DNA of 64,000 nt from Lama guanicoe. Taxonomy: Eukaryota. Below, piece by piece: positions 10,501 to 33,040 of the stretch. Below the pieces are notes generated by a model. That model was not told where the DNA came from. It did no database searches and saw nothing but the letters and a program-made list of their open reading frames with translations. Position numbers and translations under genes: made by a program. The DNA is taken from the NCBI GenBank assembly GCA_013239625.1, contig MU053802.1, positions 79,363 to 143,362 of the forward strand. The letters are read 5' to 3'. Position 1 is the stretch's first letter; each line of letters starts with the position of its first letter.

Positions 10501-10650
10501 TCCTGGATTCAAGTTGGCCAGGCAGGAGCTCCATCCAAGAGGCAGCCTTGTGTCTACTCCTGTCATCTGCACAGGCTACCACCAGGTGGCGGTGGCACCT
10601 TGGTTGAAACCTGGTGATTTAGTGTCCAGTGTGTACTGACTGAAGCACAT

Positions 10651-11811
10651 TTTCTTTTTTTTTTAATGGAAGTATAGTCAGTTTAAATGTACAATTTATA
10701 ATGTGCAATGTAATAGTTCAGGCATACATATATATACACATTTGTTTTCATATTCTTTTTCATTATAGGTTACTAGAAAATGCTGAATATAGTTTCTTCT
10801 GCTATACAGAATAAACTTGTTTATCTATTTTATATATAGTAGTTGGTATCTGCAAATCTTGAACTCCCAATTTATCCCTTCCCACCCTCTCCCCTCTTGG
10901 TACCCATCAGTTTGTTTTCTATTTCAGTGAGTCTGTTTCTGTTTTGTAAGTGAGTTCATGTGTCTTTTTTTAGATTCCACATGTAAGTCACATCATGTGG
11001 TATTTTTCTTTCTGTTTCTGGCTTACATCACACAGAATGGAAATCTCCAGGTCCAACCATGTTGCTTCAAGTGGCATTATTGTATTATTATTTATGGCTG
11101 AGTAGTATTCCATTGTATAAATAGACCACAACTTTTTCATTCAGTCATCTGTTAATGGACATTAAGGCTGCTTCCATGTCTTGGCTATTGTAAATAGTGC
11201 TGCTGTGAACGTTGGGGTGTGCATATCTTTTTGAATTAGAGTTCTCTCCAGATCTCTGCCCAGGAGGGGGATTGCTGGATCATATGGTAAATCTATTTGT
11301 AGTTCTTTGAGGAATCTCCATGCTGTTTTCCACAGTGGCTGCACTAAACTACTTTCCCGTCAACAGTGTAGGAAGGTTCCCTTTTCTCCATACCTTCTCC
11401 AGCATTTATCATTTGTGGACTTTTTGAGGATGGCCATTCTGATACCAGGTGTGCGGTGATACCTCATTGTAGTTTGGATTTGCATTTCTCTGATAATTAG
11501 CAATATTGAGCATTTTACATGCCCCTATTGGCCTTTGTACGTCTTCATTGGAGAATTGCTTGTGTAGGTCTTCTGCCCATTTTTGGATTGCATTGTTTGT
11601 TTTCTTCTTATTAAGTTGTATGAGGTGTGTATATATTCTGGAAACTAAGCTCCTGCCAGTCTCATCTTTTGCAAATATTTTCTCCCATCCCGTAGGTTGT
11701 CTTTTTGTTTTGTTTATGGTTTCCTTTGTTCTGCAAATCTTATAAATGTGATCAGGTTCCATTTGTTTATTTTTGCTTGTATTTTTATCGCTTGGGTAGA
11801 TGGCCTGAGGA
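10651..11811 (-). mobile_element. 5'-truncated LINE-1 (ORF2 C-terminus, 3' UTR, poly(A))
   Basis: Poly-T at ~10651-10664. Minus-strand ORFs give [28 protein letters not shown] and KETINKTKRQPTGWEKIFA, which are L1 ORF2p C-terminal motifs. Confidence 0.95.
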
Positions 11812-12304: not shown

Positions 12305-14305
12305 AATTCTTCTAAAGCATTCCAAGAACTCCTACGCCTGGTGTTCCACTTAATGCTGTTTAGAAAACACTAGTATAGAACAATCCTCTTAATGTTAAAG
12401 ACAGGTAGACTGAGGCCAGAGACAAGAGCAAGCTGGCACCAGAGCCAAGCTTCTTTCTTGCCCCTGTCAGTCAAAGGGCACACAGCAGTCTTTGCACATT
12501 CCCCGCATCCTGGGTCCCGGCCCCGTGGGAGGCAGGCATGCCAGGCAGCATTGTCTGCATGTTCCAGATGAGCACACAGAGACCTGCAAAGTTAACCTAA
12601 CAAAGTGCCAGATCTGGGTCTCCAACCTGGCCTTCCTGCTCAGATCATCTCCACCTCTTTGTCTGTTTCTGGCCAGGCCTGAAGAGGCCAATGAAGGGCA
12701 AGGAGAAGGCAAGGGCTGCAAAGGAGGAAAAGAAGAGAAGCCAGAGCCTGGGCCCCGGTCAGTCGTCTGATGCCCCCGAGAAGAAGAGACCCAAGATTGA
12801 TAAGCTCAAGGTGAGGGTCTGGAAACAAATGCTGTCAGAGTGTGGGGGTCACACCTGGGGTACCAGGTGGCAGATGGGGCAAGACAGAGGCCCATGGACT
12901 GTTCTTGCCCCCTGAAAGCCAGGCCCAGCTCAGGTGTTTCCCAAGGAGCTGGAGTCAGATTTGGACAACTTCAAGGACTGGCTGTACACTTTCAACCTGC
13001 TGCGGGGCAAGACAGGGGATGATGGAGATGACCTGATGGAGGAGGAGCACATCGTGGGCCAGTTCAAGAACAGGCAGGGAATGTGGTCCCAGCCCCTGAG
13101 CCCCAGGCCCTGAGTCCTGAGCCCCCTAGTTCTTCTCCCCACCCCAGGCCCAGGGCTGACAGCCAGGTGGAACCATCAGTTGTCCTGCTTGATAAAATAT
13201 GAAAATACTTCCATGCTGATTGACAAAGAGCATCTGCCCTGAACCCAGCTCCCCACCCCTCCTCTCGTAGAGTTGCCTCCATGGCCACTCCTTCCAGAAA
13301 ACCTGACTCCCTGTGATCCAGCAACTAAAGGGTTAAGGCCCCACCACAGCAGGGTGCAGACCCTCAGTGCTCTTGGCTGTTTTGAGTGCCAGCCCTGCCT
13401 ATGCCCGTGGGAACCTGCACCCTGACCCACGCTTGCCTCACCCCAGGGCTCCCTCTGCATGAACAAAATGCCCCTCCCAGAGGATGTGTCTTGGGAAGCC
13501 AGCTACAACCCTACCTATGGCATGTCACAGGGCATCCCCAGCAATGACCCCATCAACATGCTGCTCCATTGCTCTGAGTCTATGTGGCTTGGGTGAGAGT
13601 CCCCTCTCATCCCCTCCCTCCAGCCCCAGTCCTCCCACCCAGGAGGGACTGAAGCAGCTGCAAACTGATATCCTCCAACTGGGAGGCACCAGGGAGGTCA
13701 GATAGTCTGGTTCCCATCATTTATAGGGGACGAAACCAAGGCCCAGGGAGAGTCGGCATCTTGCCTAGGGTTACACGAGCCTCTGGTCCTGTTCTCCTGC
13801 CCTTCACCATCACGGAACCATCAAGGAGAGGGCAGGGGCACTGGGAGATGAGGAGGGTGTGGGGAGCCTACTCAGGACCACCCCTCCATCCCAGGCCACA
13901 GACCTGCACCCTGCAGACATCAATGGCAAGGCCAACCCCTACATCACCATCCAGCTGGGCAAGACTGACGCCTGTGAGAACTCCATCTCCAAGCAGCTCA
14001 AGCCTGTCTTTGGGAAGTAAGGCCTCTTGGTTCTCCACCGCCACCCCAGCCTGACCTCCTCAGCCCAGAATACCTCCCACCCCACCCTGACCCTCAGCCT
14101 TTCTCCCAACCCCTTACCACTAGGGCCTTTGACATCGAGGCCTCCTTCCCCATGGAATCCATGCTGACGGTGGCCATGGATGACTGCGATATGCAGGCAC
14201 TGACAACCGCATCGGGGAAACCAAGACTGACCTGGAGAAGGGCTTCTACAGCGAGCACCGCGCCGCCCGCACCTGCTGCACCTGAACTCTATAAATGAGA
14301 TTCAG

Positions 14306-14603
14306 GCCGTTTGTTCTCGGGATAGGAACAGGCACCTCTCCGGGCGCCAAGCGGTCATCCGCTTCCCCTGCCTTCCCGCAGGCCCTGACCCCGCGAGCCC
14401 CAAGTAAGGGACTGGGGCCTTAACTCGGCTGCAGGCACGCGCCCGGGGCGCGTCCACGCCCAAACCCCCAGCCCACGGGGGCGGCGGGCGGCGGGCAGCA
14501 GGCGAGCAGGGAACAGGGGCGCGGGGCGGGGTGGGAGGAGGAAGGGCGGGGGCTGCCGGAAGCTGAGGCCGGTCTGGTAGTCAGTGCTGCGCCCTCGGCC
14601 GAC
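14306..14603 (+). promoter_or_regulatory. CpG-rich CASP6-derived 5' leader with promoter-type motifs
   Basis: GC box GGGGCGGGG at 14523-14531, a second GGGCGGGG at ~14544-14551, ETS-type CCGGAAG at 14556-14562 and many surviving CpGs. Activity is untested. Confidence 0.5.
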
Positions 14604-17024
14604 ATGAGTTCAGCGCTGGAGTTCCGAGGGACTGGCTGTGCAGGTGAAGAACACAACGTGACAGAAACAGATGCCTTCCCTAGGAGAGAAATGTTTGATC
14701 CAGCAGAAAGGTACATAATGGACCACAAGAGGAGAGGAGTTGCTTTAATCTTCAAGCATGAGAGGTCCTTCTGGCACCTGACGCTGCCGGACTGGCGGGG
14801 AACCAGCGCGGACAGAGACAATCTTCAGCGCAGGTTTTCAGATCTAGGATTTGAAGTGAAACGCTTTAATGATCTTAAAGCAGAAGAACTACTGCTCAAA
14901 ATTCATGAGGCATCAACCTCTAGCCATGTAGATGCCAATTGCTTTTTGTGTGTTTTCCTGAGTCACGGTGAAGGCAACCCCATTTAAGCATATGATGCCA
15001 AAATTGAAATTCAGACACTGACTGGCTTGATCAAAGGAGACAGGTGTCAGAGCCTGGTTGGAAAACCCAAGACATTTATCATTCAGGCGTGTCGGGGAAA
15101 CCAGCACTATGTGCCCGTCATTCCTTTGGATGTCGTGGATCGTCAGACAGATGTGCTGGATGCCAACATAACCCAGGTGGACGCCGCCTCGGCGTGCGCA
15201 CTGCGTGCCAGAGCGGACTTCCTCATGTGCTACTCGGTGGCAGAAGGTTGTTATTCTCATCGGGAAACGGTGAACGGCTCATGGTACATTCAAGATTTGT
15301 GTGAGATGCTGGGAAAATCTGGCTCCTCCTTAGAGTTCACAGAACTCCTCACACTGGTGAATAGGAAAGTTTCTCAGCGCCAAGTAGACATTTGTAAAGA
15401 CCCAAATGCAATTGGAAAGAAGCAGGTCCCCTGCTTTGCCTCACTGCTAACTAAGAAGCTGCATTTCTTTCCAAAATCTAAATGATAGGTGCTATTTTGT
15501 TCTATGTATCTGTATTTAAAATAGATTTTCCCTTCTTTTTATAAAAAGAAGTATCCCTAGGTTGAAGTTTATGGTATAGCAATATAAAATGTTTTAAGCT
15601 TTAATGACAGAACTTCAAAAAAGCAGTTCATATTGGAACATGGTGAAGGGGTTTGATATGTAGTAATGAAATACTCAGGGAATTCCTGTAAGTTAAAAAT
15701 GCATTAGCATTTCTAATACTTGAGTTTTAGAGTAAATTGCAAGGTTACTCATAATATCTGGCTGATTTAACTTTTATTTTCTGACTTTTTTACATGAAAC
15801 TTTTTAATCTTTTTAAGGGTTTTTGAATCCTAAGAGTCAGTTTTCCTTTAATATTTGAAATTCATGTTTTATTAAATTTTTCTAATTCACATTCTTATTT
15901 GCATAATTTATAGATGACTTGTATTACTTGGTCATGTAAATCTACATATGAGTTACCACTTTTTGTATAGGACTTGAACACTCACATTTTAAAAAATGAG
16001 CCTTCAAGAACAGTTCATTTTTTTCAAAGTGAACATTACAGTCTTGTACAAAAAGTGATATTTCGTGCATAGATATGGCATTCTGAGAAGGAAATAGAAA
16101 ACATAAAACATAGTGACTTCTTAGTAGAGGCTACACACTTGCAGAGTTTGATTTTGTCAGTACCTTCTGTGTTAAGTTGCTATACACTGTCCAGCAGTCC
16201 CACATGCGGACTGTTATGTTAATGGAATAACAGATATTACTTTTAAGATTCAATTCTTACTAATATGATATATAAAATTTGAGTAGTATGTTAATAACCT
16301 ACCGGAGGCTGAAGATGGTTACGTTTGGGCTCTGATAGCAAATGTGAGGGTTGCTAGCTCAGAAGCAGCAGTTTGCTTATGTCATTTCAGTTGCAGTTCA
16401 AAACATGTGCCAACTCTATGTTAAGGTCAGTGGGACATTTATACCTCTTTTTGTGTCATAACAGGGACTTCACGTCAGTTGAACATTTTAGCTGTCCTTT
16501 AAGCCCCTACTCACAGGCGTTGCCATCTCCATGGTTCTACCTACAAGAGCAAATGACTACAGATGATTTCAAGTGACAATTTATAATAATCTAAGCTATA
16601 TTTAATGATAAAAATTTTCAACTATGAATTTAGAAAGTAATGGCAAGATGATTCTAAATGAAGCCTAAGAATCAATGTGAAGCCAGGCACACCGACAGTT
16701 TCACTTCCGCATGGGAGTGAACGAACACAGGACACTGATGAGGAATCTTAACTCACATGCTGAACTGCAGCAGCAGATGCTTTGATTTTGTTGGACGCAT
16801 CCAAGCTCCTTCCAGCAGCAACTTCAACGAGCCATGAAAATCCACAAACCAAAAATCTCATATGAGGATATTAAAGAATACCTGTGCTTTGCAAGCATTT
16901 TTTTTTACTAACAAAAGTGACTGAAATAGTCAAATTCAAATGAACTACAGGACTCAGAAAGTTCCAGTTTCTAAGCAGCAAATGAACACAATGCAAAAAT
17001 TCACTGACATTTAAAAATGTAAAA

Positions 17025-17098
17025 TTATTTCTTTTCATTGAGTTCCTCTACTGGCATCTGCAAATAGAGTGGCCCACCCATCTCAGGGCTTCAGTAGC
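17025..17098 (-). pseudogene. MCUB: MCUB (CCDC109B) last coding exon, in antisense inside the CASP6 retrocopy 3' UTR
   Basis: Minus strand reads ttttcttcctgtggacag|GCT ACT GAA..., giving ATEALRWVGH-(4-nt loss)-YLQMPVEELNEKK*. This matches the recalled human MCUB end AKESLKQARHSLCLQMQVEELNEKN*. MCUB is the tail-to-tail neighbour of CASP6. Confidence 0.85.
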
Positions 17099-20000
17099 CT
17101 GTCCACAGGAAGAAAACGAGGCAGTGATCAGAAAGGACTGCAAGCCAATGAGCATTAGTGGTCATGAGGAACTCTATACCTTCAATGTCTCCTTAGGTCA
17201 ATACATAGATCTAAACTATGAGTGGCAACTGCCTACTATTAATATTACAATTTATGTGAATCCTTTTGTAAAACATGAGTTCAAGCTTTCTACTACATCC
17301 CTAGAGTTCTTGTTATGTTAGTTTTCACCTTTACAGTGGTTTTCCCAGTTCATATTAAAAAACAAAAACAAAAACCTCAAAAATAAATAATAATAATAAT
17401 AGTAATAATAATAACAATAATAAAAAACAAGATTCAGACCATATGGTTTGGGAAGGGAGACCTATTATGATTCCTGTCCCAGCCAGGCCTCCACCCCTAC
17501 AGGCTTTGGGCTCAGCCTTCAGGGGCCAGGACAGCAGATTCCAAGACAAAGAGAGAGCCAGGGGATTCCAGGACAGAGAAGGCAAGATGAGAGAAAAGGG
17601 GGCTGAGAAGAGGGGCAGCACTGTGTGCTTGGGAGCATCCAAAGGGGATCAGTCTGGCCTGTGGGCTGTGTGACCCTGGTCAAGCCCCTTAAACACTGTG
17701 ATGATCAGTTTCCTCAGGGAGTCTTTGACACTGTGGAGGAGTGGACACAGTAGGGGAATGATGCAGGCCGCACTGGGGGAGACTGGATGCTTGTCCTTGG
17801 AACACTGAGCACGTGGGGTCAGAGCCCCGGGCAGGAAGCCCTAGTGTCTCAGCCAATCCTGGAACACAGGGCAGGACTCACTGACACGCAGCAACAGCCA
17901 GCCCAAGAGAACTGGCCGGGACCATTTCCCCCAGCAAGCCCGTGTGTCTCCTCCCACAGACATGGCTGCAATATTTAGCGGGACCCCATGAAGCCCAGCC
18001 AGTTCCTGACCCGTCTCTGCAAGGAGGGCAAAGTGGACGGCCCCCACTTCAGCTCCCCTGGGAGAGTGAAGGTGTCCAACCATGTCTTCATGGGACCCTC
18101 CGAGATCGAGGACGACAACGGTAACAGGATGCCAGACGCAGCCGAGGGGATGTCAGAGGCTGAGAAGGGGCCCACAGTTCCCTGTGGTGGGACAGCCCCC
18201 CTGATCATCACCCTAGCATCCTCCTTCTGTCCCCTCAGCCACTGCCCTTCCACCCCACCCCACACAGCCTTGCCCACTTGTAGCCTTTTCTCTCCCTCTC
18301 AGCATCCCTGTGGGGTATGGAGGTTCTCCCCATTCTGCAGGTGAGAAAACCAAGACCCAAAGGGTTTCAAGACTTGCCCAAGGTCACACAGCTCTTTGGA
18401 GGCAGCATGAGGGTGTGGGCCTGGGTTGCTGTGGCTTTCCCTATCCCTGCACCCATGTAGCACTTTCCAGAAAACCAGCAGGTGTCTCTTCCGGGAAACC
18501 ACCACCTTCAAGGTGCTGGGACAGGATGTGGGGTCTTCCCCCTCTGACCTCAGAACTCAGAAGGATTCTCTGGTCAAGTTCCCCAGGCAGAGGAAACCAA
18601 GGACACAGACCTCTCTGGGCCTGTGTGGCAGCTGGACCAGCTTGGACCAGCCATGTCTCCCTCTGTGCCTCAGTTTCCCCCACAATCACCTGGAGGTGGG
18701 GCCTTTTTGCCCCTGCATCCCTGGCCCAGCACAGGTGTCTTGTTCTGCTGAGCCTCTGTGTACAGCTGACCCACTGGTACCCACAGGTCAGAGGAAGCCC
18801 ATGGAGGAGAACGTGGCGCTGTTGGCCCTGAGGCACTGGAAAGACATCCCAGGTGTGAGCTGCCACCTGGTGCCTGAACATGTGGAGACGCAACCCCGGC
18901 TCAACCCTAACAACCAGGGCATCGAGCAGGTGACTGGCCTGGCCAAGCGCTGAGGTTCTCCAGCATTTGGGATCAGGGAGTCCCAACCTGGGTCCATAAG
19001 AACAGGTCCTCATGCTGTTCACTGCATTCCCCAAAGCTGGCGGGCACCCCACACACGCACATCACGGCACTTCCTGGCTCACGTCTTAAGTCTGAGTGAG
19101 AATTCTGTCAGCTACGGTGGACACCTGGGGTTGCAATGGCTATTGGGGACGTCATAGGAATGGCTGGCATCCAAGGACAAAAACTGATGTAACGGGTCCT
19201 GATGGGACAAAGGTTGGGAGGAAGAGGGTACCTGGCCTTGCCGGGCAGAGGGAGGAGTCTGTGAGAAGACCTGCCACAACCTCCTTCCTCAGGGCCACCT
19301 GGAGTTGTGGGAGGACTTGTTTACCACAGATGTGCTGGCTCCTGGGACAACTCCGGACATCTCCCCATGGAAGCCTGAGGAGTGAGCTGCTCGGACCCAG
19401 CACCCCTTCCTCCCTGCTCCGCCTGGTGTCCCTTCTGCAGGAGGCTGCAGGCCCAGGTCACTGAGTCAGTCCCATGTAGCCTTGTAGGAGGGAACAGAGC
19501 AACTCATCAAGAAGGCTATGGGGCCCAGCCAAGGTGACTCCCCTTTGCTGGGACAGGAGCCACACCCGCACTGTGCAGTTAGTGAGGGTGATGAGGACTT
19601 TCACCCTCACAGACCCACCCCTCCCAGCGCACGCGCACGCGCACACACCCACAAGACGCAGAAGCCCTGAGAGTCTTCTCTGCCCCCTGATCATCCCCAC
19701 TCCGGGCTGTCGTGCAGCTCTGCCAAGTTTTATTGAAAGCACCTGCTGATGAGATGTGCAGGGTGAGTGCCCAGAGGAGCGGGGTGGGTCGGAGAGCAGA
19801 AAGAGCTCTGGGTCAGGAGCCGAGCCACCTGTCTTTCCTGGTTGACACTGGCCAGGTCAGTGTGCCTCCCTGGTCCTCAGTTTTCCCATCTGTCAAATGG
19901 CAGGATCAAGTCACTGCCAGCACTGGCCTGGGTACCTGGAATCAGGGCCAACTGCGCAGACCCATGAAGTTGCTCAGGACCCCACACTTATTTCAAGATG

Positions 20001-32302: not shown

Positions 32303-33040
32303 ATTGCTGGAGAGGCTGTGGAGAAAAGGAAACCCTCCTACACTGTTGGTGGCAGTGTAATTTGGTGCAACCACTATGGAAAACAGTATGGAGATTCCTT
32401 TAAAAACTAAAACTAAAGTTACCATATGATCCAGCAGTCCCACTCCTGGACATATATCCAGAGAAAGCCCAATTTGAAAAGATACACACACCTGAATGTT
32501 CATAGCAGGACTATTTACAATGGCTGAGGCACGGAAACAACCTAAATGTCCACTGACAGATGACTGGATAAAGAAGTTGTGGCATATTGACCCAATGGAA
32601 TACTACTCAGCCATAAAAAGAATAAAATAATGCCATTTGCTTCAACATGGATGGGCCTAGAGATTATCATACAAAGTGAAGTAACTCACACAAAGAAAGA
32701 TAAGTATCATGTAATATCACTTACATATGGAATCTAAAAAAATGACACAAATGAACCAATCTACAAAACAGAAACAGACTCATAGGCATTGATAACAAAC
32801 TTATGGCTACCAAAGAATAAAGGCAGGGAGGGATAAATTAGGAGTCTGGCACTAGCAGATATAAACCTCTATACACAAAATAAACAATGAGGTCCTACTG
32901 CATAGCATAGGGAACTATATTCAGTATCTCATAATAACCTATATTGAAAAAGAATGTATGTATAAGTAAATCACTAGGCTTTACAGATGAAACTAAAATC
33001 AACCCTGTAAATCAACTATACTTCAACAAAAAATAATAAT
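32303..33040 (+). mobile_element. L1 3' end inserted in an older L1 remnant (~31600-32300)
   Basis: [18 protein letters not shown]2-type peptide; 3' end aaatcaactatacttcaacaaaaaataataat. Confidence 0.9.

Follow-up and report, generated by a model that had tools for sequence, protein, structure and literature searches.

In this study, a copy of the caspase-6 gene CASP6 was analyzed in a 64,000-nucleotide stretch of Lama guanicoe DNA (the window; G000:C1709:79363-143362), and comparisons were made with the 2.05-Gb assembly to which the window belongs (G000). As judged from its sequence, the segment at 14306-17424 is a processed pseudogene of CASP6 of the LINE-1 (L1) type. It lies between the two copies of a target-site duplication (TSD), inside a decayed duplicate of OTOF. 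Its long 3′ untranslated region (UTR) contains, on the minus strand, an image of the last exon of MCUB, the gene that converges on CASP6 at the parental locus. The coordinates of the features are listed in Table 1.

The origin of the copy was examined by aligning window positions 13500-18000 to G000:C5323:131300-171299. Positions 14305-17377 corresponded to seven collinear plus-strand blocks of G000:C5323:137741-153148, with no gap between blocks in the window. All six parental introns were absent from the copy, and each of them was GT-AG in the parent after trimming to the splice sites. The spliced parent encoded an intact caspase-6 of 293 residues, with a 302-nt 5′ UTR and a 1888-nt 3′ UTR as kept in the copy. 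The coding region of the copy was 94.2% identical to that of the parent without gaps, and its frame was broken by a TAA at 14985-14987 (codon 128, Tyr in the parent). Both halves of the frame matched Pfam Peptidase_C14 (PF00656), with E values of 3.3e-13 and 1.2e-36. The best solved relatives of the C-terminal 165 residues were caspase-6 (E 1.1e-93; best caspase-3, 3e-35). The translation also contained the QACRG motif.

The 3′ UTR was compared with the whole genome using 15486-17424 as the query. Four long matches were obtained, including the window itself. The others were on C4186 (96%, query 1-1937), C2730 (95%, query 1-1937), and C5323:151261-153148 (93%, query 1-1892, ending just short of the tail). 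The last of the seven blocks joined window 15245-17377 to C5323:151020-153148 in one alignment, with 93.2% identity over 2142 columns. Chance is excluded for this CASP6/MCUB collinearity, since the alignments had E = 0 in a genome of this size. A first-pass annotation of the window had proposed that the copy derives from a spliced CASP6 mRNA, that its 3′ UTR starts at 15486, and that the segment at 16.5-17.4 kb belongs downstream of parental CASP6. The missing introns, the TGA directly before 15486, and the single block that runs collinearly through the last MCUB exon bore these proposals out.

The identity of the gene next to CASP6 was determined by a genome-wide search with Pfam MCU (PF04678). 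Directly past the CASP6 3′ end, minus-strand exons were found at C5323:154338-154469, 155028-155249, and 156533-156694. A second PF04678 locus was found on C3072; one exon there was identical to human MCU at 68 of 68 residues, which identified it as MCU proper. When the C5323 exon was aligned to human MCU, W and V replaced R and E in the pore loop. R251W and E256V are substitutions typical of MCUb, according to the cited section of a review (PMC7279490). Because the PF04678 exons adjoin CASP6 on the minus strand, the pore loop has W and V, and MCU proper lies on C3072, the convergent neighbor of CASP6 on C5323 is, on this sequence evidence, MCUB (CCDC109B) and not MCU.

The terminal coding exon of MCUB was read in parental DNA at C5323:152792-152869 on the minus strand. 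Its predicted features there were a polypyrimidine tract, an acceptor AG, and an intact 26-codon frame (ATEALRLVRHSLYLQMPVEELNEKK, then stop). The penultimate exon, at C5323:154338-154469, ended in ...EDLAK followed by a predicted GT donor (AAG/GT). On the minus strand of the copy, 17098-17025 also followed a polypyrimidine tract and AG. It read ATEALRWVGHS, a frameshift, and LYLQMPVEELNEKK before the stop, and the 4-bp deletion in this image is irrelevant on the CASP6-sense strand. The first-pass annotation had recognized this exon and its acceptor as those of MCUB, with about 280 nt of MCUB intron beyond, and had described CASP6 and MCUB as convergent neighbors. The intact parental exon and the adjoining PF04678 exons agreed with its assignment to MCUB, the intron piece measured 279 nt, and the two genes lie on opposite strands of C5323.

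AATAAA or ATTAAA hexamers occurred on the MCUB strand over an interval that begins about 120 nt past the stop of MCUB and comes within about 110 nt of that of CASP6. With hexamers at these positions, the 3′ ends of CASP6 and MCUB would probably overlap even if the CASP6 UTR were short. A processed copy of MCUB was also observed at G000:C2821:67269-67870 (also on C32524). It matched PF04678 with 141.8 bits, had an open stretch of 164 aa, and was about 84% identical to the parental last exon. The match began exactly at the last-exon boundary and ended in an A run at an AATAAA about 120 nt past the MCUB stop, and the C-terminal frame was disrupted.

The 3′ end of the retrocopy was compared with the same position in the parent. 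The parent reads ...CATATTCAAAAACAAAAAACAAAAACCT up to the end point and ACTCTGATTTATCAG... after it, and the window reads ...CATATTAAAAAACAAAAACAAAAACCT followed by CAAAAATAAATAATAATAATAATAG.... The tail begins after ...AAAAACCT, downstream of a genomic A-rich tract, and the copy holds the whole tract and CCT first. Since the tract and CCT were copied before a tail that the parent lacks, a true cleavage and polyadenylation event is recorded, and internal priming on the tract is excluded. U/GU-rich sequence, as expected downstream of a real poly(A) site, follows the site in the parent. ATTAAA was present at the distal hexamer in all three retrocopy paralogues (window, C2730, and C4186), and both upstream ATTAAA hexamers were present in parent and copy. 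The first-pass annotation had described a UTR of about 1.9 kb running to ATTAAA and poly(A), and had placed the poly(A) site inside the last MCUB intron. The measurements agreed with it: the UTR is 1892 nt long, the signal stands at 17354-17359, and a non-templated tail starts at 17378, 279 nt past the acceptor.

Table 1. Features of the CASP6 retrocopy, its host, and its parental locus (window positions unless a contig is named).
Feature	Position	Strand	Details
Host: decayed OTOF duplicate	13901-18140	+	retrocopy in the intron between an exon ending at ~14270 and an exon from ~17960, same orientation
5′ TSD copy (AAATGAGATTCAG)	14293-14305	+	present once in the empty sites, with the downstream flank directly after it
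Retrocopied CASP6 5′ UTR	14306-14603	+	parental exon 1; C5323:137741-138084, 85.6%
CASP6 coding region of the retrocopy	14604-15485	+	293 codons and stop; ATG 14604, TGA 15483-15485
Retrocopied long CASP6 3′ UTR	15486-17377	+	1892 nt (1888 nt in the parent); collinear with parental genomic DNA
Proximal ATTAAA	15871-15876	+	bypassed by the putative template mRNA; parent 151644, 383 nt past the stop
Imperfect palindrome in the 3′ UTR	15940-16072	either	~125 nt; predicted to fold into a long hairpin; downstream of the proximal ATTAAA; parent C5323:151714-151859
Second upstream ATTAAA	16870	+	bypassed by the putative template mRNA; parent 152639, 1378 nt past the stop
Antisense image of the MCUB terminal coding exon	17025-17098	-	74 nt (78 nt in the parent); stop TAA 17027-17025; 4-bp deletion
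Antisense image of the 3′ end of the last MCUB intron	17099-17377	-	279 nt; acceptor AG 17100-17099 and polypyrimidine tract
ATTAAA poly(A) signal	17354-17359	+	ends 18 nt before the last templated base, 17377
Non-templated A-rich tail	17378-17424	+	~46 nt; decayed to an (AAT)n-like microsatellite; in all 3 copies, absent from the parent
3′ TSD copy (AAACAAGATTCAG)	17425-17437	+	from comparison with the 5′ copy and the empty sites
Parental blocks	C5323: 137741-138084, 144181-144226, 144736-144886, 145300-145379, 147155-147332, 150216-150380, 151020-153148	+	alignment to the window

The insertion site was characterized from paralogous sites in the genome. The TSD is 13 bp long with 2 mismatches (AAAtgAGATTCAG and AAAcaAGATTCAG). 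At three paralogous empty sites (C2211, C2832, and C3882), the flanks were directly joined and ...ATAAAnnAGATTCAG occurred once. At about 95% identity, C2730 and C4186 shared with the window the insert, its tail, and the TSD, as well as flanking DNA of at least 1.1-1.5 kb. These common features indicate one insertion followed by segmental duplication, and they rule out that the three copies arose by independent insertions.

The host DNA had matches to dsrm_Ferlin and Ferlin_C, and its closest solved relative was otoferlin (PDB, E 1.6e-21). In the window, the host had an in-frame stop and a frameshifted C2 exon; the corresponding exons on C2832 were intact and canonical. Stops or frameshifts were found in the OTOF-like copies of the window, C2730/C4186, C2211, and C3882. 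Insertion into an OTOF exon was ruled out, since the exon is seen in the intact OTOF copy to end earlier, with the next one starting at HGYNIW. The duplicate of the 3′ part of OTOF in the window spans roughly 455-25860 (~25 kb) and is 81-87% identical to the apparently intact gene at C2832:8099653-8126602. There are at least five decayed OTOF copies, three with the CASP6 retrocopy and two without it. Two interspersed repeats, at 10650-11811 and ~32305-33040, had dozens of matches of 79-84% genome-wide; presumably, they are fragments of transposable elements, lying in the OTOF-like block and in the AT-rich DNA past its end. The tiny contigs C25761 (228 bp) and C24526 (224 bp) and the small contigs C32259, C26315, and C44076 duplicate segments from the parental CASP6/MCUB locus or from the retrocopies, and probably reflect assembly redundancy or collapsed duplicates.

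The decay of the retrocopy was investigated by region. Divergence from the parent was 8.3% in the 5′ UTR, 5.9% in the coding region, 5.9% in the proximal 3′ UTR, and 7.3% in the distal 3′ UTR. The window and C2730 copies differed from each other by 3.1-6.5%. The C2730 copy was disabled differently from the window copy, by a stop at codon 8 together with deletions of 6 bp and 4 bp. With a TAA at codon 128 and a coding region that diverges like the UTRs, the retrocopy is, by its sequence, a neutrally evolving pseudogene.

The locus as a whole can be explained, with a probability of about 0.88, as a processed pseudogene made from a spliced CASP6 mRNA that used a distal end and ran antisense to the last MCUB exon. 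The template would have been a fully spliced, full-length CASP6 mRNA, with 302 nt of 5′ UTR, 882 nt of coding sequence, and 1.89 kb of 3′ UTR. This mRNA would have passed the two upstream ATTAAA hexamers and been cleaved and polyadenylated about 18 nt after the third, at a point 279 nt into the last intron of convergent MCUB. With its end point inside that intron, it would have been antisense to the entire last MCUB exon, both the coding part and the 3′ UTR. L1-type target-primed reverse transcription would have made the copy, which would have landed, in the same orientation, in an intron of the already duplicated and decaying OTOF fragment. Neutral evolution would have followed, and then duplication, flanks included, to at least three places. 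The retrocopying event would have occurred in the germline or early embryo, given that the copy is inherited. From the retrocopy, we infer that transcripts of CASP6 and MCUB overlapped at the parental locus. Twenty-four sequencing runs matched the parental stretch; in the RNA or probable-RNA runs, 0.35-0.40 of the sampled words were present, and such shares cannot separate a long CASP6 UTR from an MCUB exon on the opposite strand, hence they give no evidence.

Some observations weigh against this explanation. A retrocopy is proof of a single molecule and does not establish that the isoform was a regular one. At the distal hexamer, ATTCAA stands in the present parent (C5323:153124-153129) and also in a tiny contig that duplicates it, in a comparison within one genome that does not itself give the direction of change. 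The dN/dS ratio of retrocopy to parent was 0.37 (dN 0.044), which is below the naive neutral expectation. This value can be read as the product of a constrained parental branch and a CpG-inflated dS, with dN corresponding to about one neutral and one constrained branch. There may also have been a brief early period of constraint on the retrocopy.

The ATTCAA of the parent leads to the strongest rival explanation. The template could have been an accidental read-through CASP6 RNA from a parent that always read ATTCAA. Cleavage would then have occurred via the A-rich tract, on the basis of AAAACA-type variants, and the ATTAAA of the retrocopies would be a C-to-A change on their stem before duplication. 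Mutationally, one substitution on either branch fits equally well at a divergence of about 6-7%. Read-through would nevertheless need a chance mutation to place a canonical hexamer exactly 18 nt from the recorded cleavage point, and the U/GU-rich sequence downstream in the parent is as expected of a real site. This rival was therefore considered improbable. Loss of ATTAAA in the parent was judged about five times more likely than its gain in the copy, since for a gain chance would have to produce a canonical hexamer at precisely the functional distance. Under the distal-end explanation, we infer that ATTAAA was present in the parental gene at the time of copying and later changed to ATTCAA. 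The distal signal of the CASP6 gene may thus have been lost after the retrocopy formed.

A functional role of the retrocopies was also considered. RNAs from the CpG island at their 5′ end, or from a transcript of the OTOF-like host, would run antisense to MCUB, with the CASP6 UTR in sense, and might regulate either gene in trans. The segment at 14305-14650 (346 bp) meets CpG-island criteria, with a GC content of 0.717 and a CpG observed/expected ratio of 0.75, equal to parental exon 1. In this 5′ part, 23 of the 33 parental CpGs were kept. Loss of CpG to TG/CA affected 4 of 33 sites there, compared with 26 of 57 elsewhere in the copy (Fisher p = 0.0011). The retained CpG-island character and the fewer losses are as for DNA unmethylated in the germline, and they suggest that the island stayed unmethylated there after insertion; GC-biased conversion in a GC-rich region may equally explain the retention.

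The 3′ UTR palindrome had a minimum free energy of -45.5 kcal/mol (z -7.0) in the retrocopy and -57.7 kcal/mol (z -9.5) in the parent. It was found in the genome only in the parent and the three retrocopies, and a scan of window 14000-18000 against Rfam, at E up to 0.1, gave 0 matches. Origin from a repeat family resembling miniature inverted-repeat transposable elements was unsupported, the genome matches being limited to these four places. The palindrome would also fold in a long MCUB 3′ UTR.

Pseudogene-derived regulatory RNAs are known, and the relevant section of one review names endogenous small interfering RNAs (siRNAs) of mouse oocytes and decoys of the PTENP1 type (PMC5470649). The present retrocopy resembles them in its long exact complementarity to MCUB and its identity to the CASP6 UTR; it also has the same orientation as its host gene. 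It differs in that here a capacity is read from sequence, namely the retained CpG island and 39 exact matches of at least 21 nt to the parental last exon, the longest of 62 nt. Retrocopy RNAs of either origin would pair with the last MCUB exon and share the long CASP6 3′ UTR, including the hairpin of about 125 nt. The sequence nevertheless decays like neutral DNA (5.9-7.3%), the OTOF host is itself a pseudogene, and the CpG retention has its equal explanation in conversion. A functional role was therefore regarded as very unlikely, and the trans-antisense action on MCUB that the first-pass annotation had raised is speculation. If it were true, a caspase-derived pseudogene family would tune MCUB, the mitochondrial calcium uniporter's inhibitory subunit, or CASP6 itself via double-stranded RNA, small RNAs, or competition for factors.

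Internal priming by the L1 reverse transcriptase on a longer, unprocessed transcript, for which the parent offers AAAAACAAAAAACAAAAACC immediately ahead of the end point and, about 60 nt farther along, an A14 run, was rejected as next to impossible from the alignment of parent and copy, because such a copy would end inside the tract.

The retrocopy was also compared with known systems. Processed pseudogenes were reportedly described as 'genomic fossils' of past transcript isoforms by Shemesh et al. (PNAS, 2006). The likeness is that a retrocopy is read as the record of a transcript variant, in this case of an alternative poly(A) site, and the difference is that a 3′ end and a signal are recorded here that the parent may since have lost. 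L1-mediated mammalian retrocopies share with the present one the loss of introns, a full-length mRNA, a non-templated A tail, a short TSD starting in an A-rich target, an unlinked site, and neutral decay. There is no mechanistic difference; the present copy has an unusually long 3′ UTR with an antisense exon and an intron piece of the neighbor, and was later duplicated to three copies. The general mechanism is covered in the section cited from a review (PMC5470649). The mechanism itself is textbook, and beyond its record of the overlap the retrocopy is an ordinary genomic fossil.

In human, part of CASP6 lies within the Ensembl gene region of CCDC109B (MCUB), according to a table in PMC5998544, and a review table (PMC11208690) counts CASP6 as one of the genes whose 3′ UTR is lengthened in triple-negative breast cancer. 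The human pair consists of the same two genes in the same convergent, tail-to-tail arrangement. The cited tables of these sources do not describe a CASP6 mRNA covering the terminal coding exon of MCUB, whereas here such an mRNA would be deduced from a retrocopy in a non-human mammal. A literature search for a paper on the CASP6-MCUB antisense relation or on the present CASP6 retrocopy found none.

The retrocopy would be physical proof that a caspase-6 mRNA once spanned the whole last MCUB exon. The known tail-to-tail overlap of CASP6 and MCUB would then extend, at least in this lineage, from the ends of the 3′ UTRs to a coding exon and its splice acceptor. C5323:153148 is a concrete candidate poly(A) site for RNA data, and the change from ATTAAA to ATTCAA is a possible case of a distal signal lost since copying. 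The three retrocopies, each with an antisense MCUB exon and a near-complete CASP6 mRNA, may confuse gene prediction and draw multi-mapping RNA reads from both genes.

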